Source: Blasia pusilla (taxonomy: Eukaryota). From it: a stretch of 64,000 nucleotides of DNA. Within the stretch, counting starts at the first letter, position 1. Each line of letters begins with the position of its first letter. Made by a program: the position numbers and the translations under genes. Positions 15,400-57,474 of the stretch are shown here, piece by piece. The stretch is taken from assembly GCA_050084515.1 (NCBI GenBank), contig CM114271.1:25234001-25298000 (forward strand), given 5' to 3'. The notes beneath the pieces were generated by a model, which worked only from the letters and a program-made list of their open reading frames with translations, made no database searches and was not told the origin of the DNA.

Positions 15400-16140
15400 T
15401 GGCATGAAGGGCATATTTTTGTCATGGAACCAATGGTATGGCGACCAATTACTTGGTTGATACTTCCTCCTAATCTTAACTTCATTATATCGCTAGCATG
15501 ACGACATTATCAACAATGTCCCCACACTTCATACATTTGAGACATCCACTCATGTAACGCCTATAGTCGTCGAGCAAGTATCTTCTATGAAGAATGTATG
15601 TGTACCTCAAGATGGTCAACCTATGAATAATGGTACGGCTATCATGGAAGACATATCTATTCAACATGATAACGACATTATCAACAATATCCATTCACTT
15701 CATACATTTGAGGTATCCACTAATGTAATGCTTAAAGTGGTTGAGCAATTATCTTTTGCATATCATGGATTAAATCTCCCAATTGAGAGTGCTCACTCAC
15801 CCATTCATAATGTTAAACGAGCTTCAAGGGTCAGCATGTCACTCAATGTTGCACGAAATCGAAACTTCCAAGAGGCCGATATAATGAATTTAAGATTAGG
15901 AGGAAGTATCAACCAAGTAATTGGTGGTCGTACTATTGGTTCCATGATAGAAATATGGCCTTCATGCCATGCCAATGATATAATGAAGTAAAGATTAGGA
16001 GGAAGTATCAACCAAGTAATTGGTCGTGATACTATTGGCTCCATGAGAGAAACACTGTTGAATAGATATGTCTTCCATAATAGCCGTAGCATTATTCATA
16101 AGTTGACCATCTTGAGATACACATATATCCTCCATAGTAG
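15400..16140. repeat. Rearranged inverted and tandem duplications in the Helitron 5' coding region
   Basis: 15400-15492 is the reverse complement of ~15878-15975, with a further partial copy at ~15975-16047. 15585-15665 is the reverse complement of ~16057-16138. Confidence 0.8.
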
Positions 16141-20057: not shown

Positions 20058-23000
20058 AGTCACGACCCTCATAACCAAACAAACACCAAATAGGTGCCAA
20101 GCGGAACATCAAAACTCAAGTGGACTCACGCTGCGATAATCACGCTTTGGAGAGGCTTTTGGGAAGATCTCTTGGAAAAGTCCAAGAGACGAAACGCATA
20201 ATAAAGTTGTGCATTTCATGCATTAGTGGTCGCGACCAGGAAATCTAGACCAAACACGAACCAAGACTTGAGATAAGTTGAGTCTTGGGAGGTTGGTTGC
20301 CAAAGAGGTGAGAACCAATTTTGAAACGCGACTAGCATTTGGGGAAGTTGATTGTATTTTGGACCATAACATTTAGCCTCTAGATGCGTTCAAGACAAGC
20401 AAGGGCACATTGGAAAACTTATCCTATGGCACTTATAACACACAAAGATCTCAGAAAACACATAAGTAGAGGCTGAGATATTGGTCGAAAACAATTGTAA
20501 GAGCAATCGGGTTGAGGGCCACTTTGAGGGGCCCGACTGTCCTTCCCTAAAGTTTGGGGGACCTCGGAGATCTCCAGAAGTACTTGTAAGGGAGGAGTCT
20601 CTCCAAGATATCTTGGAACACAAATTCCCACTTTGAGCACCAAAAGGCGTCTCAAGGGTACAGGATGGAACGGGAGTTTGGCATTGGAACTGAAATCCAA
20701 GCCTAATCCAAGGGAATCGACTTTGTACGCCACGCTTAGATTGTGATACGTGATTCATTTTGTGTGAGTCTCGGTTTGGGACTCATTGGATGTCCATCGG
20801 ACCATTAGAACCGTCGGGCGCGCAAGGCCGTTTGAGATCCCTGAATCAACCAAAAAGTCTGTCCCAAGAATTTCCAGACTTGCATGTATTGTAAACCGCG
20901 AAACTAAGAAGGTTGAGTTTGATGAAAGACCGAGACCACAACTTGGAAAGCTAGCCCGCTGATTGATCCAGACCCGACTAACCAGAGTGTGTGTTTGCAT
21001 GCAGATCAACGTTGAGAGCATGATCTACTGAACGCATGCTTACGCAATAAAAAAGATTAACGTTCAAGGAGAGAAGACGCACGACACGTGGTATCAGAGC
21101 TAATCCTTGATGAGCGTGAACTTGGGCCGTAGAAGATCTGGACGTTTGAGAAGAACTCAAGGTAGCTAGAAGACTGCGACGCTCAAGGAGGAACGCAAGA
21201 GACGAGGAGGAGATCTGAGAAAGCTAGGACTCGCAAATGGCAACCAAGGGCGAAGAACCAAGGAAGCCGTGAGTCAAATAAAAAAATCCGAGAGACAAAT
21301 CAATGACAGACGGTGAGCCAAAGGAGGAGATAGCAACTCCCAAAGTGCCGAGTCCCAGATATAAGGATGTCCCAAACACGAATCTTTCCGCGGGATCTTC
21401 AGCTCCAAACTCAAACAACCCGGACTTTTATATCCAAATGATGGACTTTATGAAGGTGATGGCGGACCAGATGGCCGAACAGAGCAAGGTGATTGTAGAA
21501 CTCAAGTCAAATGGAGCCTCTAGTTCCAGCAAGAAGTTTTACAAGACAAACTTTCCAATGCCATTCACAGAAATGGAGCGTTCTCGGAAAGTGAGCGAGT
21601 TCGAACGGAACTCAAACTTTACTTCGAAGCGCAAAGGGCATATGAGCAAGACAAGATGACTGTAGCGGTCACGTTTCTGAAGGATCACGCTATCCACTGA
21701 TGGATGGCTCACCGCAAAGAACATGTGGGCCGTGGAAGAACTTTGAGTTGGGAAGAGTCCAAGGGGTTGATTCCATCCAGAATATTAGGAGTATCGCGAT
21801 GGCATGGAGTTTTTGAGATTGCGCCAAAGCGGATCCCTTAGCGCTTATGTGCGAGAGTTGAGTGCACAAATGAGCTCACTTTCCACATATGAGTTTACAA
21901 AGAAGGTGATCTTGTTAAGTGGACTCAAACCGAGCGCCAAAAAGGCCCTCTTTTGCATGCCTCACATTCTAGAGACGTGCACGGAGCTTTTGAGGCTAGC
22001 GGAGCAGATAGGGGACAATGAAGTCCAAAACCAGAAACCCTTTAAGCCGAATTTTCTTTGTAAGTTACTTAAATCCAAAGGGGCGTCCAAGAGGGTTTGG
22101 AATGGGGGTGAATGCAACCACGGAGGATCTCTTGCCCCTAACAACGAAACAAGTGGAACTCAATGCGAAGCCAAGAGGGTCGCCGTTCCCAAAGTCAAAA
22201 AATGCCAAAGTGATTTGCTACAATTGTGGCGAACACATGAATATGGCTAAGGAATATGTGAGGCCCAAGGTTAGCAAACCGAGTATGATTGCGTTTGCTG
22301 CTAAGCACTAATCGGCGAGAGATCTAGATACATCTCTCCAAGTCACCAAGAGAACTCCCAATTTGGTTTACCTAGGAGCCAAGATCACTAATCGCGATGT
22401 GATGTTGCTCGTTGATACAGGTGTTTTGCACTCATTCTTAAGCCCAATAATCGTGACGGCATTGGGATTGCCAACCACTAAGGCGGATAAACCCATTAGG
22501 GTAGGATTCGCGGGAGGCAAGTCCCACCAGACCTTAGAGCTGATTTTAGGGCTAGTTGTGGGATGCAGAGTATTTGAGTTGAAGGAGAAATTCACATTTT
22601 GCGACATGGAAGGAATCGATGGAGTCTTGGGGAACACATTCTTCGTGAGGTTCCTAGAAAGACAAAGTTGCTGAATGCCATCATGAGGACAAGTTTGACC
22701 GAGTTAGAGGAAGGATTCCTTTGCTTGATGAGACAAGTAGAGGATGATGCAAAAGCAAGATGCAGAGATCATAGCTCAGCTTCAAGGGGAATCCCTAAAA
22801 CACTCAAGAGAGTTGTGAAAGAATTTGGAGATGTGTTGACTAAGGAGCTTCGGACTGAGTTGCCACCACATAGGGCGGTTGATCATAAGATAGAGGTGAT
22901 ACCCGGATCTCAACCACCTTCAAAGGCGCCATATATGTTGAATCAAGAAGAACTTGTTGAGTTGAAGAGTAGGTTGAAGAATCAGTTGGATGAACTCCTA

Positions 23001-25679
23001 TAGAGGGGTTACATCTGAACTGTTAAGTCACCTTGTGGAGCGCCCGTCCTCTTTGTGAAGAAGAAGGATGAAAATTTGAGACTCTGTGTTGATTATTGGG
23101 TGTTGAATAAAGTGACGGTAAGGAGCAACTATCCTCTTCCAAGGATGGATGACCTCTTTGATTGATTTTCAGGTGCCAAGTATTTCAACCCGATTGACCT
23201 AAAATCAGGATATTATCACATTCGAATTGTCGAAGCGGATGTAGAGAAGACTGCGTGTAGGATGAGATACGGTTCGTTCGAGTTTGTGGTAATGCCTTTT
23301 GGTCTTTGTAATGCACCTACGACATTCACCACTTTGTTGAACTCCATCTTTCATAAGGAGACAGATGAGTTTGTGATCATCCACATAGATGACATACTCA
23401 TCTATTCGAACACACTAGAGGAGCACGCTTGACATTTGAAGACCGTGTTTGAGAAACTCTAGGCGAACAAGCTATATGCGAATGCGGATAAGAGTGAGTT
23501 CGGTTTGACAAAGATCAAGTTCTTGGGGCATGTGGTAAGTGCAGATTGAGTCCAGACATGGAGAAGGTAAGCGTGATTGCCGAATGGGAACCGCCTTCCA
23601 CAATGAAGGAGATGAGGAGGTTCATCGGAGCGGTCCAATTTTATCGGACATACGTGAAGAACTTTTTGGGAATAGTGGATCCTCTCACACATTGGACCGC
23701 CAAGTTTTCCAATATAACATGGACCAAGAAAGTGGATAAAGCGTTCAACCGAGTCAAGGAGATCCTCTCGCAGGAACAAGTTCTGAAGCTGGCAGAGTTT
23801 GACCAACCATTCGAGGTGCACAATGATGCTAGTGATCTTGCGATTGCAAGAATTTTGGTGCAAAAAGGGAGACATGTAGCATACGAGAGCAAGAAGCTTA
23901 GCGACATCGAAAGGAGATGGCCCACTCATCAAAAATAGTTGTTCGCAGCGGTTCATTCCTTGAAGAAGTGGCGTCACTATCTAGGACTTCACAAGCCTCG
24001 AGTATTCACTCATAATATATCGCTCAAGTTTATTGAGACCCAGGATCATGTAACATCGAAGCAACTTTGATAGTATGATACCTTGGCATTGACGAATGTG
24101 GAGCTAATCCACAAGCCGGGGAAAGACAATGTCATTCCATATGCGTTAAGTCGCAGGGATGAGCATATGCCATCGACGACACAAGTCTTGAGAGCAATGC
24201 TCCCTAATGAAACAAACCTGGAAAGAAGGATTCGTGAAGGATACATGAAGGATATGCAAGCGAGTGAGTACCTTGGGAAGTTGAAGCGAGGTGAGAAGGT
24301 GGCCAATCTAAGTTTGAGGCACTGCTTGCTAAGGTTTAAGCAAAACAAGATCTATGTAGGCCAAGGCAAGCTACGGACCAAAGTTTTTTTGGAATTTCAT
24401 GATGGACTTTTGGCATGACACAAAGGGGAGAAATCCACTCTGGCTGTTTTGGCCAAGAGGTTCTTTTGGCCCAACATGAAGGAAGATGTAGCTCAATATG
24501 TGAAGACCTGCGTAACCTGTTAGGCAAACAGAGTTTCTTATGCAAAGAAGCAAGGCTTACTTCGTCCTTTGCCAAGCCCGGAGGCACCCTTGCAAAGCAT
24601 TAGCATGGATTTCATTACGAGTCTTATGGAATCTGAGGGATACAACGCTATACTTGTGATAGTTGATCGTGCCGACGAGATATTCTACGACGGCCTACAC
24701 GACTTCCCGACTATTCTTGGATGGTTGGTGGCGAACTCACGGATTGCCTATGAGCATTATGTCCGATCGAGATCCAAAGTTTACCAGTGCCTTTTGAAAT
24801 CATCCATTCAGGAGGTTCAAGACCAAACTCAACTTTAGTACGGCCTTCCATCCTCGAACGGATGGGAAAACGGAAAAATAAAACTCAATCGTGAACCAAT
24901 ACTTAAGGAATTACGTGAGTGCGGACCAAAGAGATTGGGCAAAGTGGTTGAGTATTTTTACAATTGGACCAAGCATTCTACAAGTGAAGAATCTCTGTTT
25001 CTTCTGGCGTATTCCAAAGGAATTGTCCATGAAATTGTCAGCCAAGTATGCTGGACCGTAGAGGCTGAGATATTGGTCGCAAATAATTGTGAGAGCAATC
25101 AGGTTGAGGGCCACTTTGAGGGGCCCGGGTGTCCTTCCCTAAAGTTAGGGGGACCTCGGAGATCTCCGGAAGTACTTGTAAGGGAGGAGTCTCTCCAAGA
25201 TGTCTTGGAACACAAATCCCCACTTTGAACACCAAATGGCATTTCAAGGGCACGGGATGGAACGGGAGTTTGGCGTTGGAATTTGAAACCCAAACCTGAT
25301 CCAAAGGAGTGGACTTTGTGCGCCATGCTTGGATTCTGACCCATGATTCATTTTGTGTGAGTCTCGGTTAGGGACTCATTGGATGTCCATTGGACAATTG
25401 GAACCGCCATGCGTGAAACGCCGTTTGAGGTTTTTGAACCGACCATAAAGTCTGTCCCAAGTATTTTGAGACTTTCCTGTGTTGTAAATCGTGAAACTAG
25501 GAAGGTTGAGTTTGATGAAAGACCAAGATGAGAACTCGGAAAGTTAGCCCGCTGATTGATCCAGACCCGACTAACCAAAGTGTGTGTTTGGATGCAGATC
25601 AACATTGAGAGCGTAGCCTCTTGAATGCATGCTTCCGCAACAACAAATATTAATTTTCAAGGAGAGTAGACACACGACA
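20058..25679 (+). mobile_element. Ty3/gypsy LTR retrotransposon, decayed
   Basis: 5' LTR 20058-21086, then PBS TGGTATCAGAGC (tRNA-iMet) at 21089-21100. Internal domains in Ty3 order: gag with degenerate knuckle CYNCGEH, protease LLVDTG, RT (LCVDY, MPFGLCNAP, IHIDDILIY), RNase H (FEVHNDASD..AYESKKL) and integrase (ISMDFIT, FHPRTDG). The 3' LTR is 5'-truncated (~25056-25679). Flanks TTGAT/TCGAC are consistent with a TSD altered by C>T. Many stops and frameshifts. Confidence 0.93.
21089..21100 (+). promoter_or_regulatory. Primer-binding site complementary to the tRNA-iMet 3' end
   Basis: TGGTATCAGAGC two nt after the LTR end ...CGACA. Confidence 0.9.
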
Positions 25680-30189: not shown

Positions 30190-34448
<4,259 letters not shown>

Positions 34449-40749: not shown

Positions 40750-41517
40750 TGTCGTACGCATACACATCGGTACACAACATACATTGTTGTCACTGAATAT
40801 ACGCATAAATATACACGATCTCATACGAACTCATAAAATATACACAACGAGACGAGAAGTACCAAAATATCTCTAATAAATCAATGAAATCTTTCCATCG
40901 TAACATCAAGGTCTCACATCAAGCTCTCCATGGTGTGCATTTTTTATTATGTCATACCAAACCGAGTCTCCTAATGAGAGGTTTGGGTTAGATACACCAG
41001 GCAAGGAAGACCATAGTTCTCCGTCTCATGAGAAGAGGTTCAACAAAAAGAGAAAGAGCTTTTTAAACTTTCTCTCTTGGAGATATATCCCCTTCATTCT
41101 CCCAAACTCTCTTCTCGGTAACCTATGCTTGAAGGTCACCTCCTTGGCTCTAGAGTTGCTGTAATGGATCAAGGGTCATTTTCGAATTGGAAAGTCAATC
41201 ACCAAATACGATAATTTACCCTAAATAGTAAGTTTCTCAATATGACTCCAAGTGGGCCGAAACGAAAGAGAAACATGCTCTCGCAGTTTACCTGTGGCCC
41301 CAACAGGTCATCCTCAACCTTTTAAGGCTGTCCTTCAATATCTCAGAAGACACTCTACTAAGTATCATCGATCTATTCTAAACGACGGATAATTGTCGCG
41401 CGTATATACATTGCTATAAAATATACATCGTTGTTATCGAACATACACACAAACATGTACGATCCCATGCTAACTCATGAAATTCACATGACGAGACGAG
41501 AAGTACCAAAATATCTA
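40750..41517. repeat. LTR-like segment (TGTCG...~GTGACA, ~640 bp) followed by a ~125-bp partial second copy; candidate 3' LTR of the DNMT-bearing element
   Basis: 40750-40873 directly repeats at 41394-41516. 41000-41391 is a diverged direct repeat of 57080-57474, which ends GACGTGACA. A purine run AGGGGG lies on the minus strand at ~41522-41528. Confidence 0.55.
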
Positions 41518-41698: not shown

Positions 41699-41835
41699 CT
41701 ATTTACATCTGAGAGACATCCATCGTCCTCGAGGAACTCTAGTGAGAGGTACTGCTATATGCCATTCTCTCGAACATCCATCATAGATTAGCATCGTGAC
41801 TGCACCACGCGCGAAACCACACAATATACATCGCA
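41699..41835 (-). pseudogene. Degenerate PHD finger at the integrase C-terminus
   Basis: CILCGFARGAVTMLIYDGCSREWHI-AVPLTRVPRGRWMSLRCK fits the PHD pattern CxxC..(L)CDxC...H..(C)..PL..VP.G.W.C..C. Two Cys are substituted and the Cys after the His is deleted. Confidence 0.75.
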
Positions 41836-44800
41836 AGCCTTCAAGACCTATTGCTAAGCTTGGATCAATTGTACCATCAATGTTAGGAAGGTGATATGGC
41901 GCATATTTACGCACATGGTCCTTCCAAACCATACCATCGCGTCCCTCCAATAAGAGAACACCAGATGGCAAAACCTCACGCACTCTCAAGATAGTGCCTA
42001 CCTAGTGATTTCCAATGCCTACACATGAAATTAATGAAGTAGGTTTTATCAGATCCAAGAAAACCTTGTAGTATTAGTAGGCATGAGGTAAGGTCTCTAA
42101 TCTTACAAATGAGTTCCTATTGTAAAACTTCAAAACGCTTATGTATGGTCTATCATGTTTATGAATTGGTAGTGTTTAAGCAAGGGCTTGGCCACACTCT
42201 TTCTTGTGTAGTAGGTAAAGTAGATCATCTTGGATGCGTGGCTTGAGATTTTCTTATGTTTAGGAGAGAATCTCTACACTATGTATTTTGCTCCTTAAGT
42301 GTTGTGCAACATGGTTCTTGATTAATTTTTCTACCAAATCCAGATTAGAGTTAATATTGGGTAGCATGCAGAGTCACTATCGTGCGTATACACATCACTA
42401 CACAACATAGTCTCCCTGATGAAACCTACGGATAGTCAGTCGATAACCACCTCCATGAATAGTCGCATATCTAAACGTATCCCAATGCTGTGCAATCGCC
42501 AAGTTCTCAAACACCATGGGCATCACTCTCGGAAATAACTCAACCCTCTGAGAAGATGCTTGCATCCATACATCAGGGTTATTAAGTTTTAACACCTCAC
42601 CAACACCTCGACGAATGGTCGTACGTAAATTTGGCTTTTGTCCATAAAGGAGCAAGTACGGTGAGAAAGACGCTAAGAATGCATGCTTGGTGAATCTGTA
42701 TCCCATCGCCAACCACGGCAACTAGAGGTCCCAATCTCCTAGGTAACCTCTCTGCAAGCCAGACTTGCGCAATCCTCTAATCACCGTCTGCACAATCCTC
42801 TGTGCTAGTCTATCCACCTCAGGATGATCTCGCGAAGTGGTGTGGTGGTCGATCAACGCTTGATCATACAAGGCTTGAAACTCCCTGTGAAACTCTGTAT
42901 CATGGTCTGTCAACACCTCCACTGGTGTGACGTAATGACTCAACACTCGATCTAGGAAGGCATACGCTACTCCCTCACTCGCTTTGTTAGGCAACGCAAC
43001 CAACTCTATCCACTTTGAGAAGTGCTCGACCATCACCAACACATAACAACTATGGCGCTACGGCAAAGGTAAAGGTCCTGCAAAATTCAAACTCCATCTA
43101 TAACCTAAACCCATGATCGGAAGTGGATGCAAATGTGGAGTCGAAGCATTGAATGATGCCCCGACCCCATCACAAACCATGCACATGGCAACAAACTGCT
43201 GAACGTCAGTCTGCATGCCTCGCCACCAACACTATATTTGGACCAAGCTGTACATCCGCTTCACTCCGAAATGATCCAACTCCTCGTGGGCATGACGCAC
43301 CTGTGTGTCCCCTCCTACCGTAACTGTCTGGCTCGTTGTAGGATTCGATCGCGCTCTCTAGCGCTATCGGAGTAACACCAATTTCGCCAATTTTGGTGAA
43401 TTAAAACATTGTTGGGTTTCCTAAACCCTTCATGATTCTGATTTCCTTGAAGCTGTGCTTCAAGATAAAATTAGGACTTAAGTTTATTTTATCTGGATCA
43501 CAATCTTGGAAATAACATGTCCACTCATCTTTTTTTTTTTGCAATTGAGTCTCTTATTCCACTAAGGATTAATTTAGGAAGATAAAATTTTCTTGATGTT
43601 TATTTCAGTGTTTTTCTCAATATCTCTAGCGTGCGATGGCTTAAGATTGATTAACTTACACTCAACTTCGGAAATTGGGCCAAATTTATTTCTAAAGACG
43701 TTATTGTAGTCAGACATTCAAATATTGTCTCAAATGTACTTGCTTTAACTGACTGAAAAAAAGTTTCATTCTTGATTTGTAGGAAAAATATTGCGAGCTG
43801 GGCAATCGTCCCTTGGAAAATTGTAGATAATGAAATCCTCGCGAGCATGGGGGTCATTAATTAGACCTTTTGCGATGAACATATGGACGTATGATAGTCA
43901 GAGTATGGAATTATATGATGTCGTCGTGACATGCCGTGCTTGGTCACCTATATGTGGGAAAGTAAAGAACAAGTTTTCCTTCACCTCAACGACATTCAAA
44001 TGCAAACTGAAGATTATGCTTTTAGGTTTAGAATTTGCGAAAATGGAACTTAAGTTCTGATTATGTCTAATGTCTTTTTCCTCCAATCTTGGTGTCCTAA
44101 GGCCTTGATCTCTCTAAGGAGTAATATTGTGTGGTTAGTTATAAGAACTAAAGTGCTCATATGGGTGAAGTCCTCGTGATCGTGAGAACGCAAAATTTTT
44201 GGATTCTGAAACTAAATTATTCTACAACCTATATACAATGGTAGAGGTAGAATCTTGAATGAGCCTCCATGGATAGGTTAGAGAAAGGAAAAACTTTGCA
44301 AAGGTTCATTAGTTGGGTCGAGAATAAAGAATAGAAACATGAACTGTTTAAGCAAGGAATAAGTACAAGTACAATCCGTTTGTTGGGAGGCCACTTGTTT
44401 GGTGGGTCTCTTTCTTCAATGTGGTTGTAGGAAGTAGGAACGAGTAATCAAAACTTAAGTCCCAAATCTTCCTCTCTCCTAAGAAACATAGGAAAAAACA
44501 AACCAGTTCAATAACAAGTGGAACATGTCTGCAGAAGGACTTGTTCCGGCTATGGATCAGCTCCATTCCGTGGAAGGATCTCTTCCCGTTACGACACAAC
44601 TCATACCGATGGAACCAGATTTTAGGAGCGAGTTGAAAGGCATTCAAAACTCTAGTTCCAAATGAGCTCCCATCCACCCCCTATCCTCCAAGTATTTGGA
44701 ACGTCCTCTTGGCTGTAGCCCTATAGTTGCCCACAAAAGAAGTTGGTTAAATTGTGGAGGTAATCCTACCACTAGAATTGGATCTCAAGAGCCAATTCAA

Positions 44801-45111
44801 GGGCATTTGGAACTATAGTTCCAATGGGATGTTATATTCCAACGATAGAACGCTTTGTGCCATCACAACTGGACCTCAAGATCCAATTCAAAAGCATTGA
44901 AGAATTAGTATGGTTCCCCGCGCGGCTGTTAGGGACATAATCAAAACTTAGGTTCCGATTCTCCCATATTTTTCCAATAAATGTTAGAGATCCCTTCCAC
45001 TGCTAAGTCACGTGAACTTCACAACTGAACTTATGGTTGTACTAAGTGCTAATTGTGAGAGTTAACTTCCATTCCCCCAAGATAACCGACTAGCTTAATA
45101 TGTAGTATAGA

Positions 45112-47661
45112 TGTCACGACCCTCATGACCAAACGAGTGCCAAGCGGAACATCGGAACATTAGCGGGCTCACGCTAAGATGGTTTGCGCGTTGGAGTAGT
45201 CTCAAAGAGGAGACAAGAGACGAGACGCGAGCGAGGCGTCGCGTTTCAGATGTTGTGGTCGTGACCGAGAAACCTGGACCAAACGCGGAATGAGACTTGA
45301 AAGAAGTCGAGTCTAGGAAGTGGGTTGCCAAAGGAGGAATCCGGATTTGGAATGCCACTAGCGTTTGAGAGTTTCCGACTGTATTTATGGCCATAACTTT
45401 TAGCGCCAAGATGCGTTTGGATTAAATAAGGGTGCGTTAGAAAGCTTATGGAAAGCCGGTTCAAACACATTAAGGATCTTTGCAAACGCTTTAGCAGCGG
45501 CTGAGAAACAATCCGGAAACGACTATAAGTAAAGCCGGGTTGAGGGCCACAATGAAGGGTCCGACCCTCCTTTTCCAAAGGGGGGGGGGGGGAGGTGGTT
45601 ATTGGAGAACCCCAAAAGTACTACTAAAGGGGGAAGGTCTCCGAGAGTGCTTGGAACCCGAACCCCACTTTGGGCGCCGTAGGGCGGCTCAAGGGCATGG
45701 AACAGAACGCGAGTTTGGGGGTTGGGTTGGAAAACCTTCACCAAGTCTAATGAGGCGATTTTAGACATCCCTCTTGGATTTCACCCCGCGACTCAATTAA
45801 TTGGGTCTAGGTTTGGAACTCACACGAGGAACGTTGAACAGTTGGGATCGCTAGGCGCGCGGGTGCTGTTTCACATCCCTGGACTAACATGGAAGTCTGT
45901 TCCAAGTCTTGAAGGACTTGCCATGTTTTGGAAACTAGGAACTAAGGAAGGTTGAGCTTGATGAGACGCCGAGTTGAGAACTCGGTGGGTTGGAACGCTG
46001 GTTGGCCCAGACCCGACTAACGAGAGTGCGTGTTTGGATGCAGATCGGCGATGAGATCGTGACCCACTGAACGTACGCTTCCGCAACACTAAAGATTGAC
46101 GTTCAAGGAGAGTAGGGGCGTGACAAGTGGTATCAGGGCAAATCCTTGGTGAACGAGAACTTGGGGTCATGGGATCAACCGGACGCTTGGGAAAACTCAA
46201 GGTAGCGGCTAGACTCAGACGCTCGAGGAGGGACGCAAGAAACGAGGAGGAGATTTGAGTGAGTTGGCTTGAAAATGGCGATCGAGGGAGAACAACCCAA
46301 GAAGCGCCGAATCAAGCGACGTGAACCAAGAGAGGAACCAATGCCGGACCGTGAAGCTATGGAGGAGACGGAGACTCCCGAAGAGCTGAACGCCAGTCGT
46401 GAGGACGTCCCACAGGCGAATCCTTCCGCGGGGCCATTGGGCCCAAACTCAGGGGAACCTCCAATGTCTGGCTCGACCGAGTCGAGCCAGACATTGGACT
46501 TGTTGAAGCTGTTGGTGGAGCAGATGTCCCAGCAAAGCAAGCGGATTGCAAAGTTAGAGGCCACTCGAACTCTGGGTGCGGGCAAAAAGCTCTGTAAGAC
46601 AAACCTGCCCACGCCATTCACTGGGGTGGGGCGCTCGCGGAAAGTGAAGGATTTCCTTACGGAATCGAATCGCATTTCGAGGCGCAGAGGGGCGAAAGCG
46701 GGACAAGGTGACAGTAGTCGTTACTTTCTTGAAGGATCATGCGCTACAATGGTGGACAGCTCAACGAGAGGAATATCTGGGCGGCAAGTCACCTCTGAGT
46801 TGGGAGGAGTTCGAGGTGTTGATTGGGGATCGATTCACTCCGGAGGACCAAGGGTTGCGCGACACCGTGGAATGCGTGCGGATGCGGCAGAGTGGTTCCT
46901 TAAGCGCGTATGTGAGGGAGTTTAGTGCGAAACTGACTTCTATTCCAAAGATGGATGAGCACGCCGAAGAAGGCTATCTTCATTAGTGGACTCAAGCCGA
47001 GCGCTGAAAAGGCCCTTTACCGAATGCCGGCGTTGCGGATACTGCGCGGATCTTCTGAAGCGGGCGGAGAGGATTGGGGACGATGAGGTCCAAACCCAAA
47101 ACCCTTTGAGCCAAAAGGTTTTTCGAAGAAGTCGAAAAATAAGGAGGCGTTCAAAAGAGTTCGGAGTGGGGACCAAAGACGATCCAGAGAATTATCGCCC
47201 GCAGAAGCAAAACGAGTGGAACTTCATGCGGCGTTTAAAGGAGGACAAAGACTCGAAGTCAGGGAACGGCAAGGTCATATGCTACAACTGTGGCGAACCG
47301 GGGCACCTGGCGAAAGTGTGTTCGAAACCGAAGGTTAGTAATGGGAGTATGATTGCATTTGCTGCTAAGCATCTGTTGGCGGGCGATCTCGAGACGTCCC
47401 TTGAGGTCACCAAGAGGACGCACAATTTGGTGTACCTAAGATCCAAGATTGCTGATCGCGATGTGTTGTTGCTCGTGGATACAGGTGCTTCGCACTCCTT
47501 CCTAAGCCCGAGAATTGTGAACAAACTGGGGTTGTCTACCTCTAAGGCGGATGAGCCCATTCGAGTAGGATTTGCAGGAGGCAAGTCTCATCGGACTTCT
47601 GATTTGGTCTTGGGTTTGACCGTAGGATGCGGGGTATTCGAGTTGAAGGAGAATTTTACTA
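45112..47661 (+). mobile_element. Nested, 3'-truncated Ty3/gypsy element (5' LTR, gag, protease), related to the 20058 element
   Basis: LTR TGTCACGAC...GGCGTGACA at 45112-46125, PBS TGGTATCAGGGC at 46128-46139, gag (FLKDHALQWW, intact knuckle CYNCGEPGHLAKVC) and protease LLVDTGASHSF. It breaks off at ~47661, head-to-head with the RNase H region of the minus-strand element. Confidence 0.9.
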
Positions 47662-49699
47662 TGCTCGCGACGTTGCTAGTACACACGTACACCAAGATTA
47701 CTCCATCATCGTGAATATCTCGGCCACTTGTCCTCTCTTCACCGGCCTCTAGATCTAAGGACTCTCCATTAGACCTCGCCATCGAATACTCAGCAATCTG
47801 GCTCTCCATAGCCAACAAGCCCAAATAGGCTAACGCGTGCCATCGTGGCACGAACTCCTCATCACTCTCACCATGCCAACGAGTTCTAATTGCATCTCGC
47901 TGACTCAGGCAAGGGTTACGGCTCAAACCATTGACATCCTGGTCGAGCATCCTAGGCCTATGTACCACATGGAAGTCATACTCCTGCAACAAAAAAGCCC
48001 ACCTTGCAAGCTTCCCTTTAAGCTTGTCGGACTCCATCAACCACATAAGTAGTTGATAATCAATAATAATGGTAAAGGGATTGCCAAATAAACAACACCT
48101 CAAATGCTTGACAATCCATACTACAACCAAGCACTCACCCTCATACGAGCTATACTTCGCCTCTGCAGCGTTGTTCGAGCGACTAGCGTAAGCCCCCACA
48201 AACTCTCTACCCTCATCGTCATGTTGGGTGAGCACGGATCCAAGCCCCAACATGCTCCAATCGATATACAACTGGAAAGGATGCCCCCTGATCGGTCTAC
48301 TCAAAATGGGTACGGACGTCAACTTGTCCTTGGGCAGCTGAAATGATCTCTCCTACTCATCCCCTAGTGCCACTCGTAATCCACCTTGGTCAACAAGATT
48401 AGCGGCTTCGAAATCGAATTGAAACCCTTGACGTATCGTCGATAGAATTTCGCCAATCCCATGAATGCACAAACCCAACTCATATCTGTAAGGCGTGGAA
48501 TCCGTGAAATAGCCTCTACCTTCCTTTGTTGCACATCAAGGTCACCTAGGTATATGATATGACCCTGGTACTCAATCTGCTTGTAGAAGAACTTGCACTT
48601 GCTTGGATATAGCTCCAACCTATGTAACTGCAATCGTCTAAACATCTCTTTTAGATGTCGCTCATGCTCCTCAACTGTGGCGCTAAAGACTACGATGTCA
48701 TCAATATACAACCTAGCAAAATCCAGACCATCCAAGATCCTATCCATGAACCTTTGAAATTGAGCCGAGGCGTTCTTTAACCCAAATGGTAAGAATTGCC
48801 ACTGGTATAAGAAATCCTTCCCATGAGGATCTATGCCCCAAAATGCCATCTTCTGCCTGTCCTCCAATCTGATAGGCAGCTGATGTTATCTAGCTCGAAG
48901 ATCTAACAAAGTGAAGACCTTTGCATGCCCAATAACATCAAAGATCTCCTCAAGGGTGGGCATGGCATACCTATCGCACTTCGTCTGCCGATTGATAGGT
49001 CGGTAATCTCCACACATCCGCCTATCTAGCCAATTACCATGAACATCCTTCTTGGCGGGCATGAGTGGCAGATGCATACGCTCCATGCAACATCTCCACT
49101 AGTCCTGGTCCAACCAAGTCTTGGCTCCAACTCTGAATCAGAGCCCTCTCCATATCATTGTATCTATGGGGCGTCGAAAGATTTTCGTGTCACTCGAAAA
49201 CTAAATGCGCATCTCTAGATCCTTCAGCCTACCCAAATCATGCATGCTTAATGCAAAAAAACGCCTATAACTCATAAGGAACTAATGTATCATGCGCCGC
49301 TCTCCTCCTGTCAACTTATCTGGCTCCCAAGTATCCATCGTGACTACAGTAGGACTCTCTGGCGCGGGTATCGGTGGTTGCTATGGTGCAACCCGACTTG
49401 AATAGTAGAACTAGGTTGCTCTCCTGCAGCCAAATGCAAAACTTTGATCTCCTCCACGTGCAGTACCCGAGACCACACTCGATGCTATGACTATCATCTC
49501 CGGGCGTACCTACAAAACATCCCAAGAAGCCCAAGGGTGTCTCTCCCGATCACCCATGGTATGTCGATCTCCTTGGGTCTTGCCCTTAGCCACTGCCTCA
49601 ACCGTCTCGGTAGGCAGGGGGCTCACCAACCCAAGAGCTGTAATATGTCGCAACCTCAACCGACGCTGCTCAGCTATTCCTAAGCTGAAAATCCATGTC

Positions 49700-50625
49700 A
49701 AGGAGTTCAGGTCCATCGCCTCACCCAAGATATGATGTCGTGATGCCCTCTGATAGTGATGGTACTACCGTCACTCCTGTGGGGAATCCCATTGCTCGCT
49801 CTCGCTCATCGGCGTTGGGCTGCACCAACTGCTGTACCTAGTCAACCCAAATCAAGCCAGGTCCGGTCTCCTTGAATGCATAGGAAGCGGAAAAACTCAA
49901 AATATGGGAAAAGTTGCTTGTGGCATGCCAACCCAGTTGAACAAAGTCAACAAAGGTCAATCATCGTACCGTACTACCTGTGACTGATGACGTGGATCCA
50001 AAATAGAATCTACCAAAAAAGGGAGGGGCGCTCCACTCTCGCATATGCCCTACCTAAAACCTAATTTGGCACCAAGTTGGTCCACCAAAGACGCGGACGA
50101 TGTGCTCGTGAACCTACACTCGCCGTATCCAACAAAACTGCTAGGCCGATCCATGCGCGTACTTGATGTGCACTCATCACCACTAGGGACCTCGAATCGG
50201 CACATTTTCCAGAATGTAGCTGGAGAACGGGATTGATGGTCGTGCAAGTGTCGCAAGATCTGCATCATCTCCCAAAATAACATGGATCGAGTATAAAGTA
50301 ATCCGCTACCTCGTCCAACACTTGATTTGCCTTGACACGGCCAACCAGCAATGGCCAAATCTATGGTCCTTACCCGCTCCACGTTATGAGCCCCCAACAA
50401 TAAAACGTCCCTCGGTAGGGAATTCTGGTGACCCTCGATGGTGGACGCAGACAACAAGTCGGGAAATCCGAGGCGTAAATGCGTCACATGGTGAAGTGAA
50501 GCGCGCCTTGCAACATCATCAATCTCAACGTATAGGTACTATTGCACACGCATTCCAACCTGCAAAATAGCAGCTAAGCCAGTGCTGATCCCTCCAAAGA
50601 GATCCAACACGCGAATACCCTCATG
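49700..50625 (-). pseudogene. Retrotransposon-encoded cytosine-5 DNA methyltransferase domain, DNMT3-like (disrupted)
   Basis: Motif I IRVLDLFGGIST (50617-50581), II YLYVEID, IV IDLAIAGWPCQG (PCQ ~50340-50332), VI YILENV (ENV 50209-50201, after a frameshift), VIII LLDTASVGSRAHRPRLWWTNL (~50135-50073), IX ERERAMGFP (~49810-49782) and X RHHILGEAMDL (~49745-49712). There is one in-frame stop at 50539-50541 plus further stops and frameshifts. Confidence 0.9.
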
Positions 50626-52594
50626 TGGAATGCACCACATAATCGGGGTGGTGTCTAAAGGGATCATAGTAGCACTCTTGGCTACCTCAAGTTCCTTTGA
50701 CCCGTCACGCTCTGGTGCAAATGCCTCACTCCAAGCGGTCTGCATGTGCTCATCAGATAAACGTCGGAGCTCCTCACTCGAGCCCCACAACGGCACCTCT
50801 CCTCCACGGAATGATGCGACTACCATAACACTCATCTCCCTAGAAGTGTCAGGCGCGGGGATGTCCTCTGCATGGACATGCCCCTCAATCAAATCAGAAG
50901 GCCTCGTGATGGCGCTGCTAAATGCTGCGAATGTCGCCATCTCTCGTAGCTATCGCTCAATCACTCCACCCGTGAATCGAACGGGTAATGAGCTAAGTCA
51001 CCCATCACCGGACTGTCATCTTGGTCTGTAGGACGCTGACTCCTCCCAATAATCCATGGAAAACTCCATCGAGAACAACATTTGCTCCACCAACCACGAT
51101 GTCGTAGGACTATGTATCGGTCACTATCGCCTTGGCTTGCACAATGGACTTATCTGTAGGATGTCTTGGGCGAATCCTCATCACGACCGCCTATCGGGTG
51201 ATAAACTATGTGGTACTCGGTGCATCCAAGGATGTTTGTATCATGAATGGACAATGCTCCACATCGGCCCTCGTCAGACCCAAACCCGAGAATGCCGCCT
51301 TTCCCAACATCAGGGGTTGCGCTCATGAATCTAACAAGACTTGTTGCGGAAAAAAAATCTACCTCTTGGACTTACCAACTGGAAGATCTCTTCCGGATTA
51401 TCTAGCAACACAACACCTGGAGCAACCGTGGCACGCTCTATCGCGGGTCTAGCGGGCATCTCCGCCATCCTTGCTGTCGCAACCTGCCATGAATCTGACA
51501 TGGACGGCCCGAGCATCATCTCCAAGGGCAGTTCCATCACTTCATGTGCAAATCACCTCTGAACGTGATGCAGGAACACCATCTCCACGCTCACATAGCG
51601 TAGCCGACAGCTGGAAAATATCGGCAAGCTTACCTCCCATCGTCATAACATCGGAAGCAAAAGATAGCGGAGCACGGTAGACCATCGTGGCCGCCCGCAA
51701 CATTGTACTCGACACATGCTCCTCCCGAGCATCAACAATAGAAATCTTCACACTCGCTTCTCCCATCGCTCTCCGTGCCTGCACACCAACACCATAAACT
51801 CTCTGGGAACTTTCATCAGGATCCATCGATGGGTTCCTCATCGCCTCGGACAACGTGAAAGATTGAGGAAGCCACGTCTGTTTCGTGGCTTCTCTTCTTT
51901 GTGGATCCAACCTTGCGACAGTTCCAAGTGGAACAACTACGGCTGCCTCCAACTAGAAAGTCGACATTTCCAGTGAGGATCCTCCATATCTTTGGCTGCT
52001 CCATAAGACGTCGATGCCATGGCTCCGGCATCGGGTAACCTCAATGCCATAGCAACAATCTGCTGCTGTATCTAAGCAACCATCCGAGCGTCACGCTCGA
52101 GGTCTCCCTCGACGTGTCTAGGTGGTGGGAATCTACCTCCTCCACGGGAAACTCCATCACCCCGTCAGGAAAATCTAGCTCCTCGTTCCCCAACAGGACC
52201 ACCACGTACACGACCTCTAAGCCCACCCGGACTTGCTCTGGTGACTCTCTTTGGCCCTCGGTCCGAACGTAACTTAGGGTATAGGTTGAAACACTTGGTG
52301 CGTATGTGACCGTACCTTTGAGAATAGTCACATTGATAACCCTATCATCCCCTGAGTGACGCTAATCAACCGGCGCAAGCGAGTGTAGGGCTTACGCAAA
52401 CTCTCACCCGGGCGCCTATGGAAGTCGTTGATGCTCTGCAACTTCTCAATCCGTATCCCCTGGTATCTCGTCCTCAACTCTGCAAAGAACTCAACCATGG
52501 GGTTGAACCTAGGACGAACCCGACTGGACGATGCAAGTTCGAGTAATCCCTCCTAAAACATCATTGGTGGAAGAGGAATTAGCCTCTCATTCGT

Positions 52595-55500
52595 CATGGA
52601 GTATTCCTCAACATCAATCACAGGCGAGAAGCTAGATAAGCAGAATTACAATGTCTGGAAGTTTCGCATGAAACAATTTCTCATGGGTCAAGAACTATGG
52701 TAGCTTGTCACAAGTGATGAGGCCAAGCCACAAGGTGATTCAACAGACTTGAATGTTCACGCTTGGAACAAACACGCGAGGCAAGTAATCCACTTCATTT
52801 CAATAACGATCAGTTCGCCAATGATAAGTCACATTCAAGATGTTGATATTATGAAGGAGACTTGGGATGCATTGGAAAAGCTGTTTTAGATATCTACAAA
52901 GGCTAGAAAGCTTCAAGTGAAACAAAAATTGAACGAAGTGAGGAAAGGATCATAGAGCATCAATGATTATATTTTGAGTATCAGACATATTGTTGATTAG
53001 TTGAATAGCATTGGAGAGACAATAGAAGATGATGATGTTATTTTGTTCACTCTTCAAGGCCTTCTAAAGGATTATAAGTCCTTTGAGACCTCTATCTCTG
53101 TGAGAGAGAAGTATCCAACCTTTCAAGAGTTAGTCCCATTGTTAATCAGTGAAGAGATGCGCCTAGTAGGCTGCGATAGCTCGTCTAGTCTACAAAAGAG
53201 TGTGCTATTTGCAGATTATGGATCAAACAGAGGCACGGGTCGTGGCAGAAGCTTCCGTGGTCGTGGTGGATATCAAGCATATGGAGGAAAAGACACTCAA
53301 TATAACGTCACTCAATCAACTACGAACCAATATGTGACACAATCACAAAGTGGTGATGGTGGAAACCGTTGGGGTCGAGGTCAACAACAGAGGGTCCCTT
53401 GATCTTGCAATCACTGTGGGATAAAGGGTCATTATGAAAATTTTTGCTTCAAGAAGAAGATAGATATGAGAATAAGAGCCTTACTGCAAAAAAACTATTT
53501 GGAGCAACAATACCAAGGGCAATATCAAGAACAACAAGATTCACAAATAGAGCATCTCTTGGTCATGACTCATCATATGGGAGCCATGGTCAAGAAAGAC
53601 TCGACAGCATATTGGTACATTGATTCTCGTGCATCAAATCACATGACCTCACAAGCTAAATGGTTCTTTAGTTTGGAGTCGGTGAAAGATCTTGCAATCG
53701 TGCTCACAGGAGATGACACTCAACATCATATCACGTATACCGGTAAAGTTCCAATAGCATCAGATGGTCTTGTGCTCTTGGAAATGTTCTCTATGTTCCT
53801 ACCATTGCAAGAAACTTGATCTCTGTAGAACACATAGTAGAACACGATTATCAAGTGAAGTTTAACGTAGATGGTTGTTTATTGAAATAATGGATGACCA
53901 GACTACGATAGCCAAATGAACTAGATCTGGCAGAATGTTCAAATTAGATGTTTCTATGCTAGAGATTCAAACAACAATGTATGATCAAACCGGCCAACAA
54001 ATCACAGATCTAAATGTTTGGCATAAAAGAATTGGACATATGAATCTTCAAAGATTATAGAGTCTTTCATCATCTAATATAGTAATAGGACTCCCTAAAT
54101 TAGAAAATATTGCTCCGTTAGATGTATGTCCTGTTTGCCAATTTGGAAAACAAGCTAGATTTCTTTTTCCAAAGCAAGATAGAAGAGTATCTAGGATATT
54201 GGAATTGATCCACAGTGATGTGTGGACAACATCACAACATAGCCTTTGTGGTTGCCAATATTTTGTTTCCTTTATTGATGACTTCTCTAGGTATATATGG
54301 GTATATTTTTTGAAAGCCAAGTTAGAGGTATTCTCAGTGTTCCAAACATTCAGAGTTCTAGTAGAAAAGCAGATTGGATAACACATTCTGAAATTGCATT
54401 GTGATGGAGGAGGAGAGTATCTTTCAACAGAGTTTGATGACTATTTATGTCACAATGGCATCCAACGTCAAGTGACTTGCCGTTACACTCCACTACAAAA
54501 TGGAGTGGTTGAGAGGAAGAATCGACATATTGCTGAAGCGGCACGAGCTATGCTGAATGAGAAGAAAATGCCTAAGGTGTATTGGGTAGAGGGTGTAGCA
54601 TGTGGAGTCTTCTTAATCAACCAAACTCTAACAACAAGAGTTCATGATAAGACTCCATTCGAAGTCTTCACAGGAAGTAAACTTGATTTTTCCTTCTTGA
54701 AAGTATTTGGTTCTATTTATTTTGCTCATGTTCCTTCTGAAAGACATCACAAATTAGACCCCAAATCTGAAAGATGTATATTCATAGGCTACGCTGATGG
54801 AAGTAAGGGATATAAGTGCTACATTCCATCCTCTAGGCAGCTTATTATTAGTCGCGATGTTGTCTTTGATGAGCTAAAGTCATGGTATGCTCAATCTGAG
54901 CCTATTCCACTTCTAAACTCGTCTATTGAAGGGGAGAATATGATTGTAAATCAACAGACATTGCCTTCAACTTCCCCAAGTACTAGTGCAACATTAGGAG
55001 AGGTCCTATATTCATCAGTTAAATGTGTGAGTCCATGGACGGGAAGAGTACGTATTCAGTCTATTGACACTAGTCAAAGCTCGAGTCAGGTGTCAAAGGC
55101 ATCTACCTTTGAACAACAACTTCGTCGATCAAGTAGAGTTACACATCCAGTTCATAAATTCATAAATGAAGGTTTCCTTGCGACGCATCATGCATATATG
55201 ATGACTACCCTTCAAGAACAAGAGCCGAGTTTTTTTTGAAGAAGCTGCAAGTAAAGTCAAATGGATTGAAGCTATGGAGGAAGAGCTTGCTACATTAAGA
55301 CATCAACAAACATGGGAGCAGGTTCATATACCTTCTAGTAAGGAAGCTATTGGTTGCAAATGGGTTTATAGAATCAAGTGCAATCAAGATGATATAATTA
55401 ATAGATACAAAGCAAGATTGGTGGCTAAGGGCTATGCACAACAATATGGTATCGATTATAAGGAAAAATTTACCCCTATTGCAAAGATGGCGACTACGAG

Positions 55501-57060
55501 AACAGTGGTTGCAGTTGTAGTAAGTAAGAAGTGGAGATTATATCACATGGACGTCAAGAATGCCTTCTTGAATGGAGATCTATAGGAGGAGGTATATATG
55601 ACTCAACCACCTGGATACACGCATCCCAAGTTTCCATTTTGCGTATGCAGGTTAGAGAAAGCTCTATACGGGCTCAAACAAACTCCAAAAGCTTGGTATG
55701 GCAAGATTACATACCTCCTACAAGAGTTGGGTTTAAGGATATGTGATTCTAACTCCTCGTCATATGTCTTGAGAGGACAAGATCATATGGTTCTCATTGT
55801 GTTATATGTTGACAATTTCCTGATTACTGGGAGTACTAAAGAAATTGTACAACAAGTCAAGCTGAAGTTACAAGCAGAATTTGATATGAAGGACATAGGA
55901 GAACTCAAGCACTTCCTTGATATTGAGTTTATCAAGGTTGGAGAGAGTATGTGGTGACTACAACGACAATATGCTCTTAATATGCTTTCAAAATATGGTA
56001 TAACGGCTTGTAAGCCAATCTCTACACCGTTGGACCAGAGTGTGAAGCTAAGAATGGATGAATGAGAGTTGCTTGTAGATTCTAATATGTACAGGTGTAT
56101 TGTTGGAATTTTGATCTATCTAACTATAACCAGACTAGATTTGAGCCATGCCGTTGGCCTAGTGAGCCAGTTTATGCAAGCACCTCGAAAACCTCACCTT
56201 GATGCTATGAGGAGGAATATGCGGTATGTGAAATTCTCTATTCAATTCTCGCTTCAATTTCAACCTTTTTTGAGTTTTCAATTACATGGATTTACAGATG
56301 CTGATTGGTCAAGAAACGTGTCTGATCGATACTCCACATCTGGTTATTCATTTACTTTCGAAAGCCCAACTTATAGTTGGGCTTCAAAGAAGCAACCTAC
56401 AATTGCTTTATCTTCAATAGAGGCTGAGTATAGAGGAGCAACCAATGCATCATGTGAGGCGGTGTGGCTTCATTGATTACTTGTTGAGATTGGTGTTAGT
56501 AACTTAGGACCTAGTGTAATATATTCAGACAATATTAGTCGCAACAAGCTTGCTAATAACCTTGTGTTTCATGCTCGTACAAAGCATGTTGAGGTGCACT
56601 ATCATTTTATCAGAAGGAAGTTCTTGCAGGAGAAATTAATCTTGTGTATATAGATGGAGATAACCAAATTGCTAACATCTTTACAAAGGCATTATCTAGA
56701 GATAAGTTTGAGATGTTTAGAAATGATTTAGGCATTAGAGCAATCGATATGAGCTTAAGGGGGAATATTGAAGATTGAGTTACAATCAAGCTCATGAGAG
56801 ACCTGAACTGCTACATTTCGTACTCATACGAAGTGGGGAAGCTTAATCTTAGTTAGTCAGTTAAGCGCGATTATCATAACTAGGGTTAGTTAATCACTGC
56901 TAGTCTAACTCGAGACTATGGTTAAGATTAGGGTTAGGGTTTCTTGTACATACCCTATATAATTGAGAAGGGGACCAGCTTCCACTCATTCTCTCATTGC
57001 AAATTTCATTCTCCATGGTGGTATGTGAGTGTGAGAGCCGTTTGCCACCAGTTATGCCTC
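52595..57060 (+). mobile_element. Ty1/copia LTR retrotransposon, decayed, 5' LTR not found
   Basis: Copia domain order: gag (KLDKQNYNVWKFRMK, knuckle CNHCGIKGHYENFC), protease WYIDSRASNHMT, WHKRIGH, integrase (LIHSDVW, CDGGGEY, QNGVVERKNRHI), RT ([33 protein letters not shown]) and RNase H (FTDADW, ALSSIEAEY, RTKHVEVHYHF). PPT AAGGGGGAA at ~56757-56765. The 3' LTR starts at ~56766 and its end is uncertain. Confidence 0.93.
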
Positions 57061-57079
57061 TTTAGAAGTTTTCCACAAA

Positions 57080-57474
57080 GGCAAGGACGACCAAAGCTCT
57101 GCCGCCTCATGCCAAGACGTTCAACAAAGAGAGAATGAGCTCTCAAGCTCTCTCTCTTGGAGGTATACCCCCTTCCCTCTCCCAAGCTCTCTCCTCGGTA
57201 ACCAATGCTCGTAGGTGAACTCCTTGGCTCTTGACCTGTTGTAGGAGGTCAAGGTCCACTTCCCAAAGTGGAAAGTCACCTATACCAAAATGGCAACTTA
57301 CCCAAAATATTATTTTTCTCAGTATGGCTCCAAATGAGCCGAAACGAAGGGGAAACATGCTCTCGTAGGTTACCCGTGGCTTGAGCAGGTCATCCTCGAC
57401 TTCATGAGGTTGTCCTTCAGTGTCCCCGAAGGCGCTCTACTAGATCTCGCCGATCTATCCTAAAAGACGTGACA
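57080..57474. repeat. LTR remnant homologous to 41000-41391; candidate 5' LTR of the DNMT-bearing element
   Basis: Diverged direct repeat (gcaagga.gacca..., ttcaacaaa..gaga, ctcggtaacc, gccgaaacgaa..g.aaacatgctctcg, caggtcatcctc). It ends in GACGTGACA. Confidence 0.7.

Follow-up and report, generated by a model that had tools for sequence, protein, structure and literature searches.

A Ty3/gypsy-type retrotransposon family with a DNMT3-like cytosine methyltransferase and a candidate leaky stop in a probable bryophyte genome

DNA cytosine methyltransferases (DNMTs) are the kind of enzyme that hosts use to silence retrotransposons. To our knowledge, retrotransposons that carry a DNMT of their own have been characterised only in dinoflagellates and in one charophyte alga. 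Here we analyse a 64,000-nucleotide stretch of genomic DNA (contig CM114271.1, positions 25,234,001 to 25,298,000; hereafter the window, by which the whole stretch is meant). On its minus strand it holds the remains of what is in all probability a Ty3/gypsy-type element with a DNMT3-like domain between its protease (PR) and its reverse transcriptase (RT).

The closest described system is KnitGypsy-Dnmt3 of the charophyte Klebsormidium nitens, a Gypsy-type element with long terminal repeats (LTRs) and a non-rearranged Dnmt3-type domain in its polyprotein (PMC5890265). Its repeats are of the DIRS type, that is, arranged as A-coding region-B-A-B, together with Gypsy domains (PMC5890265). The window family resembles this element in that a Dnmt3-type domain lies inside a Gypsy-type polyprotein, and the window copy shows the same A-coding-B-A-B order of repeats. 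The two differ in host, a charophyte alga in one case and a bryophyte-like land plant in the other, and in abundance, since copies are few in K. nitens (PMC5890265) and very many in the window host. In the K. nitens protein GAQ93235.1 a zf-CCHC is followed by Asp_protease and then by DNA_methylase, and the protein aligns colinearly with P0158, a relative of the window element, over 574 columns (E 8e-52 for PR and DNMT; gag also aligns, E 6e-6), which argues for a single architecture in the published charophyte element and the bryophyte ones. This colinearity is shown for P0158, to which the window is tied by tblastn and by the DNMT tree; across PR and DNMT the two proteins share about 29% identity, and their DNMTs sit on separate deep branches. 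GAQ93235.1 may be one of the published KnitGypsy-Dnmt3 copies.

A land-plant description of a DNMT-carrying retrotransposon was not found in the openly searchable literature, outside which lie subscription papers and supplements (the Marchantia genome paper, for example, may mention one). In their accessible parts, PMC12344493 and the preprint 10.64898/2026.05.21.726589 cite only the 2018 report, as 'streptophytes (Gypsy-DNMT3)', and those of PMC11982613 and PMC5784723 contain nothing on transposon DNMTs. The original prediction for this locus, made from the letters alone, was that no land-plant family had been characterised. This stands as far as that literature reaches, but uncharacterised homologues were already present in the Marchantia and Sphagnum annotations, labelled 'hypothetical protein'. 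Because lineage and architecture are those of the published Klebsormidium element, the novelty is smaller than the prediction implied: the window element belongs to a known kind, the streptophyte Gypsy-DNMT3 elements, of which it is a new land-plant member. What is new is the placement of the candidate leaky stop and the copy number in the host.

The methyltransferase domain and its family

Raw sequence and three-frame translation place a C5 cytosine methyltransferase on the minus strand of the window, at 50640-49700. In the three-frame translation its motifs follow one another linearly from about 50610 to 49700 (I LDLFGGIS, II YVEID, IV GWPCQ, VI ENV, VIII AHRPRLWW, IX ERERAMGFP and X ILGEAMD), 7/7 motif blocks are kept and align to the same columns as those of 160 relatives, and the catalytic Cys codon of GWPCQ is present at 50337-50335(-). 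The Pfam profile PF00145 (DNA_methylase) matches the open reading frame (ORF) 50050-50538(-) with E 7.9e-6 and 26 bits, above its curated cut-off of 22; the pieces 50539-50949, 50061-50264 and 49510-49764 of the same region, each scanned alone with Pfam, gave no family. Upstream, at about 51331-51320, stands VLLDS*AQ (the asterisk being a stop), the counterpart of VLLDSGAQ in intact relatives. Downstream, RVT_1 matches 48364-48885(-) (E 2.1e-21) and RT_RNaseH matches the ORF 47588-48352(-) (E 8.7e-28). The original prediction had read motifs I, II, IV, VI, VIII, IX and X in this order and on this strand, with the Cys intact, in a Ty3/gypsy element between PR and RT; translation and raw sequence bear out the motifs, Pfam and tblastn place the domains as it had said, and the C5-methyltransferase profile that it had proposed as a check scores above cut-off.

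This copy is dead, as had also been predicted, because frameshifts and stops break its reading frame. At least four frame changes lie between 51081 and 49516 in the chain of tblastn segments against the best Marchantia relative, the conceptual read of 353 residues contains 7 X when every break is written as X, and several stops are present as well. The copy is also old and interrupted twice by nested insertions. At several of its break sites most other host copies, seen in contigs from the host DNA runs, read otherwise, and those breaks are therefore private to the window copy.

The window copy is in fragments, with other elements nested in it, so a chance juxtaposition had to be excluded: the domain could be a host DNMT3 gene captured only once, or a host pseudogene lying beside a transposon by accident. 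The relatives speak against this. A word-based search found P0001 (782 aa), which has PR and DNMT in one ORF and is 53% identical to the window ORF. An exhaustive search with P0001 gave 4175 cluster representatives at E<=1e-3 (202 at E<=1e-30), and a comparison of P0001 with the protein atlas gave no usable match. P0153 (1280 aa) and P0158 (1332 aa) combine a zf-CCHC gag, the protease region and the DNMT in a single ORF, while P0020, P0174 and P0352 encode gag-PR-DNMT-RT-RH-INT (RH, RNase H; INT, integrase) as one uninterrupted ORF. The window is colinear with its relatives from gag to the end of the DNMT, and the same arrangement is seen again in Marchantia, Sphagnum, Closterium, Mesostigma and Klebsormidium. 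Among the 57 rows of P0158 DNMT relatives, 15 are from Marchantia polymorpha (Mp_4g09160, for example, is 64% identical to the P0158 DNMT region), one is from Sphagnum fallax and one from Cymbomonas; further named carriers are Closterium spp., Mesostigma viride, another Marchantia protein and K. nitens GAQ93235.1.

The host itself provides the second line of evidence. Contigs of three host DNA runs were compared with the 5-kb stretch 47600-52600 at >=80% identity, and matches were found in 10,662/1,962,404, 7,606/1,144,012 and 11,381/1,777,731 contigs. Such thousands of matching contigs show that the DNMT element family is highly repeated in the host. In the first run, 429 contigs matched at >=99% identity, 1822 at 95-99%, 4538 at 90-95% and 3873 below 90%. 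Host contigs cover 30/30 bins of the stretch, DNMT part included, and thus span the DNMT as well as PR and RT. None of the sequencing runs listed for this DNA is recorded as RNA, and the best DNA run has a word share of 0.15. A putative RNA run (X7), which may contain DNA, gave 201 matches among 635,354 contigs, none at >=99%, and no inference on expression is drawn from it. With uninterrupted PR-DNMT ORFs in relatives and this many host contigs, the methyltransferase is a feature of the family, as predicted, and we regard the one-off capture as already refuted, its remaining chance being negligible.

A CDC48/p97 AAA-ATPase gene in the window, split by short gaps into seven exon-like pieces at 30545-34400(+), informs on the host. 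A tree of 21 rows places it with Riccia and Physcomitrium (89/90), as sister to Physcomitrium (89/71), and it is 94% identical to Riccia CDC48. For a plain homologue search the gene proved too conserved to single out a species. Because of this grouping the host appears to be a land plant of bryophyte affinity, a placement of moderate strength that agrees with the land-plant host of the prediction. Its GC content is high, and both strands of the gene have open frames.

Two domain orders are found among the relatives. In a tally of 227 proteins, which mixes representatives and cluster members so that the counts are not independent, the DNMT follows PR and/or precedes RT in 70 and lies between RNase H and integrase in 89, the other 68 being too short to classify. 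The two orders separate on one branch of the DNMT trees (SH-aLRT 98 with 89 rows; 100/99 with 42 rows). In the 42-row tree the window DNMT falls in a nine-row clade with Marchantia, Sphagnum, P0158, P0153 and P0299 (100/100), outside a tight Marchantia subclade, and the 89-row tree places it the same way; its top identity, 62% over 237 columns, is to a Sphagnum protein. Green-algal gypsy elements such as 'pol' KAF8056149.1 of Scenedesmus sp. PABB004 likewise have a related DNMT in a gypsy polyprotein (36-45% identity to P0001), but there it follows RNase H, and a PHD finger is frequently present past the integrase; these form one clade (100/99). The Scenedesmus 'pol' proteins are part of a second and larger set of gypsy polyproteins (P0014, P0040, P0177 and others) in which the related DNMT is flanked by RNase H and integrase and a PHD finger is often terminal. 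We consider it very likely that a Ty3/gypsy-type family carries a DNMT3-like C5 methyltransferase between protease and RT, that it forms a streptophyte lineage found in Mesostigma, Klebsormidium, Closterium, Marchantia, Sphagnum and the window host, and that the window holds an old, dead copy of it.

The likeness to DNMT3 was measured on an intact relative, positions 3195-4508 of the Joint Genome Institute (JGI) metagenome contig L001, and not on the broken window copy. PF00145 scores 49 bits on this region. A sequence search of PDB, with 43 distinct sequences at E<=0.01, ranked DNMT3A best (E 4.8e-11), with DNMT3B at 1.6e-8, DNMT3C at 5.8e-8, tobacco DRM (4onj) at 9.7e-5, M.HaeIII at 3.4e-4 and M.HhaI at 1.6e-3. 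An AlphaFold model, for which the alignment had 40 rows, reached a mean pLDDT of 81.6; residues 5-354 are modelled with confidence, and a disordered tail (355-438) leads up to the stop codon. The best 47 Foldseek matches listed are all catalytic domains of DNMT3A/B/C, with TM 0.80-0.83 by target length and 6f57_D at the top (E 9e-20, TM 0.83 by target length). The L001 relative is colinear with DNMT3A in alignment, its motif order being ordinary and non-permuted.

The domain shares with animal DNMT3A/3B/3C the linear I-X order, a short VIII-IX region and its best sequence and fold matches. It differs from them in being only about 20% identical, in its embedding in a retroelement polyprotein and in its lack of PWWP or ADD, none of which was found on the L001 ORF1, where Pfam gives zf-CCHC and DNA_methylase only. 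Companion reader domains of DNMT3 are PWWP and ADD in animals and a DUF in land plants; that they are missing here is not decisive, because the conservation of DNMT3 domains across eukaryotes is slight (PMC12344493). Plant DRM has a related catalytic fold, matched at E 1e-4 by tobacco 4onj, but is circularly permuted, whereas the window motifs stand in ordinary order; the 4onj match joins query 23-146 to chain 229-346. By sequence and by modelled fold, the methyltransferase domain ranks nearest to DNMT3A/B/C and not to DRM. Motif order, PDB ranking and Foldseek ranking all agree with the non-permuted, DNMT3-like enzyme of the prediction.

Across the 160 full-length domains of the relatives, the catalytic Cys is kept in 156, the ENV Glu in 159 and Asn in 152, the motif VIII Arg pair in 156 and 158, and the motif IX Glu in 157 and Gly in 159. 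Retention of catalytic residues across so many diverged domains argues for long-term constraint on catalysis. Methylation of RNA by a C5-methyltransferase fold would need the same residues, so that an RNA substrate is compatible with their retention. The family could be real and its domain no longer a DNA methyltransferase, having turned to RNA methylation or become a DNA- or chromatin-binding module that, for example, steers integration jointly with the PHD-like tail of the integrase. When the DNMT domain of Klebsormidium was expressed in yeast, no methylation was seen, a result its authors call inconclusive, and RNA methylation has been raised for another class (PMC5890265); relatives of the other domain order, moreover, have a PHD finger after the integrase. 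Yet a pure binding module would not need the Cys, ENV and motif VIII Arg that are kept in 152-159/160 domains, and the fold best matches DNA-bound DNMT3 structures. We therefore hold a loss of DNA methylation to be improbable and continue to read the domain as a probable DNA methyltransferase.

The stop between methyltransferase and reverse transcriptase

L001 shows how these elements are laid out when near-intact. Its gag-PR (321-3194), DNMT (3195-4511) and RT-RH-INT (4512-6809) abut in one reading frame, the first two each ending in a stop. The stop at 3192-3194 is read through by P0158 and is for that reason private to L001. The stop at 4509-4511, on the other hand, is the point where P0158 and its cluster mates end, and the Marchantia ORF1 proteins stop at the equivalent place. 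It consists of TAG followed by CAA CCA (4509-4517). The same TAG CAA CCA is found in the window at 49383-49375(-), in frame with homologous residues on either side, and in the alignment of this junction between window and L001 the nonamer lies inside an 11-nt island of identity with poorly conserved surroundings. No mention of a stop between DNMT and RT is made for the Klebsormidium element in the accessible parts of PMC5890265.

Readthrough in tobacco mosaic virus requires the consensus CAR YYA after UAG (PMC2754532). The stop of the window family has this same codon and six-base context, as in the type I leaky UAG of tobamoviruses; it differs in lying in a retrotransposon, between methyltransferase and RT, where readthrough is a prediction. 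We infer that TAG CAA CCA between DNMT and RT may be a leaky stop, in which case gag-PR-DNMT would be the main product and its fusion to RT-RH-INT the minor one. The view of the original prediction that the methyltransferase was part of the pol polyprotein needs correction: in the bryophyte relatives it belongs to the first ORF, with gag and PR, ahead of the in-frame stop that precedes RT-RH-INT.

The stop may also not be programmed to leak at all, RT-RH-INT being produced through splicing, reinitiation or a subgenomic RNA, or the stop being mere decay in the copies sampled. Those gene models of Marchantia (P0301, P0306, P0304 and P0322) and Sphagnum (P0331) that extend into RT do bypass the junction in the manner of predicted introns, and the stop is absent from some relatives. 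Because these models leave out precisely the stop region, they are probably mis-modelled transposon ORFs. Against decay or an incidental stop, the codon and the next six bases are identical in two copies far apart in the DNMT tree (path 0.84), this identity sits within an otherwise poorly conserved stretch and fits CAR YYA, and many independent ORF1 clusters end 95-226 residues past motif IX, with contigs continuing well beyond. A non-leaky stop is in our judgement rather unlikely, although it has to be reckoned with, and a leaky one is the reading that we carry forward.

The window copy, its repeats and its surroundings

The element extends from about 57469 to 40750 on the minus strand, and its parts are listed in Table 1. 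The order PR, RT, RNase H, INT with a DDE integrase is found in the window and in L001.

Table 1. Parts of the DNMT element in the window and the insertions nested in it, in element orientation.
Feature	Positions	Strand	Basis or remark
Terminal repeat A1 (5' end in element orientation)	57079..57469	-	389/394 nt direct repeat, 78% identical to 40999-41387
Nested Ty1/copia-type element, not part of the DNMT element	52704..56476	+	Between A1 and gag remnant
Gag remnant	52255..52552	-	tblastn with P0153 and P0158, 54-59% identity over 56-63 aa
Retropepsin region	51083..51952	-	tblastn to P0153/P0158 residues ~450-758
DNMT3-like C5 cytosine methyltransferase domain, broken by stops and frameshifts	49700..50640	-	PF00145; motifs; alignment to 160 relatives
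In-frame TAG then CAA CCA, candidate leaky stop between the gag-PR-DNMT and RT-RH-INT frames	49375..49383	-	Matches L001 4509-4517
Reverse transcriptase	48364..49098	-	RVT_1; tblastn to P0020 RT, 44% identity over 49065-48370
RNase H and start of RH-INT linker	47666..48352	-	RT_RNaseH; linker cut at ~47665
Foreign insertion, ~4.2 kb, between RNase H and integrase	43471..47665	+	Element linker resumes at ~43470
Integrase, H2C2 zinc finger and DDE core	42398..43470	-	Pfam and tblastn to P0020/P0014 INT, 39-42% identity
Integrase C-terminal region, PHD-like, degenerate	41699..42001	-	tblastn to P0014 residues 1435-1535, 41.6% identity, E 3e-15
Repeat B1	41394..41516	-	123 nt, 78% identical to 40750-40872
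Repeat A2	40999..41387	-	78% identical to A1; 6 nt after B1
Repeat B2	40750..40872	-	126 nt after A2

Several parts have lost their profile matches. Pfam found nothing on the gag piece 52328-52552 or on the degenerate protease region, where a stop replaces the G codon of the D-S-G active site at about 51331-51323(-) (compare VLLDSGAQ of P0001). The integrase is matched by rve (E 4e-10, 42722-43057) and Integrase_H2C2 (E 1e-4, 43058-43231); the tblastn segments with intact relatives cover 43300-42400 for the integrase and 41995-41702 for the PHD-like tail. The segment of P0014 aligned to its C-terminal region is the one that holds the Pfam PHD finger of P0014; the window piece 41699-42001 itself has no Pfam match to a PHD finger.

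In element orientation the repeats run A, coding region, B, A, 126 nt, B, that is, as DIRS-like split direct repeats in this one degenerate copy. A purine run directly precedes B1, and no clear primer-binding site follows A1. Both repeat pairs are 78% identical, which indicates an old insertion. A plain LTR made up of B and A, whose 5' B had been lost, may also fit; no repeat B was found ahead of A1, and the alignment of A1 with A2 starts exactly at the border between B1 and A2, so that we set this alternative aside as the less likely one. A lone 73-nt fragment at 16776-16848, 82% identical to repeat B, lies in opposite orientation without a nearby repeat A.

As for the two nested insertions, the copia-type element at 52704-56476(+) holds gag, an integrase with SH3_retrovirus, and RT; its ORF 54382-55239(+) matches SH3_retrovirus (E 1e-30) and rve, and no LTRs were found for it. 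The foreign insertion contains a gag-PR fragment of another gypsy element at 45113-47659(+), 68% identical to 20059-22595, with a Pfam match to zf-CCHC and Asp_protease at 46959-47714(+). This different gypsy family, seen at 20059-25679(+), 13486-14221(-) and 45113-47659(+), has no room for a DNMT between PR and RT; its LTR-like repeats at 20466-21086 and 25058-25679 are 87% identical, and 13486-14221 is an inverted copy of the repeat. Elsewhere in the window, 15396-16140 and 2064-2340 hold clustered short repeats, direct as well as inverted (85-97 nt, 84-92% identical), and a 138-nt tandem duplication (88% identical), and an Rfam search of the window gave nothing.

The near-intact metagenome copies (L001, L002, L003 and L004 1-9000) are strongly depleted in CpG, with observed/expected ratios of 0.24-0.30 and TpG+CpA at 1.4, and their 34% GC flank is CpG-depleted too (0.39). 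The window DNMT copy, at 0.80 against 0.69 for the whole window, is not depleted. The metagenome copies belong to another host genome, whose methylation history differs.

Proposed role of the enzyme and its meaning

In intact members of the family, translation of the genomic RNA would mostly stop at the TAG and yield gag-PR-DNMT, and occasional readthrough would append RT-RH-INT. As the stop lies after the DNMT, the methyltransferase would be made in Gag amounts, built into the particle within the Gag precursor and freed there by the protease. It would then methylate the new cDNA of the element, or the DNA at the integration site. Methylated cDNA could be disguised as host-like DNA, be protected, or have its chromatin state set; cDNA methylation as disguise or protection, effects on the chromatin of the insertion site, and self-restraint have all been discussed (PMC5890265). 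The window copy itself is incapable of any of these steps.

A number of observations weigh against this account, in part or as a whole. The bryophyte placement of the host is supported at 89/90, not more, and the label 'DNMT3-like' comes from the ranking of PDB sequences and folds. The A-coding-B-A-B pattern is read from one degenerate copy, with a 126-nt spacer before its last B. The stop is not universal, as P0020, P0174 and P0352 lack it, and its junction is covered by two DNA sequences only, a point that the non-leaky alternative shares. Packaging and cDNA methylation are steps that we infer, and the yeast assay of the Klebsormidium domain was negative, if inconclusive. The dN/dS values of L001 against L002, L003 and L004 are 0.89, 0.40 and 0.99, a weak test on copies 88-97% identical, the first two values coming from copies that differ by only 3%; purifying selection is not indicated by them, and near-identical copies say nothing on selection in an active lineage.

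The most far-reaching form of the proposal is that, in bryophyte genomes, a high-copy and recently active family makes a DNMT3-type enzyme at Gag stoichiometry, encoded ahead of a leaky stop, packages it and methylates its own cDNA before or at integration, so that part of the de novo methylation of land-plant transposons would be written by the elements themselves and not by the host. We put this forward as speculation that is probably wrong in its full extent.

The charophyte lineage of DNMT elements is also present in land plants, namely in Marchantia, Sphagnum and the window host, and is evidently frequent among liverworts and mosses. One consequence concerns annotation: Marchantia proteins such as Mp_8g17980, whose UniRef name begins 'DNA (cytosine-5', are transposon ORFs and not host methyltransferase genes. 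The placement of the stop suggests that the enzyme may be made in Gag amounts, which bears on its packaging. Finally, the question of what an element gains from such an enzyme moves to organisms that can be transformed and for which genetics and methylomes exist, first among them Marchantia.

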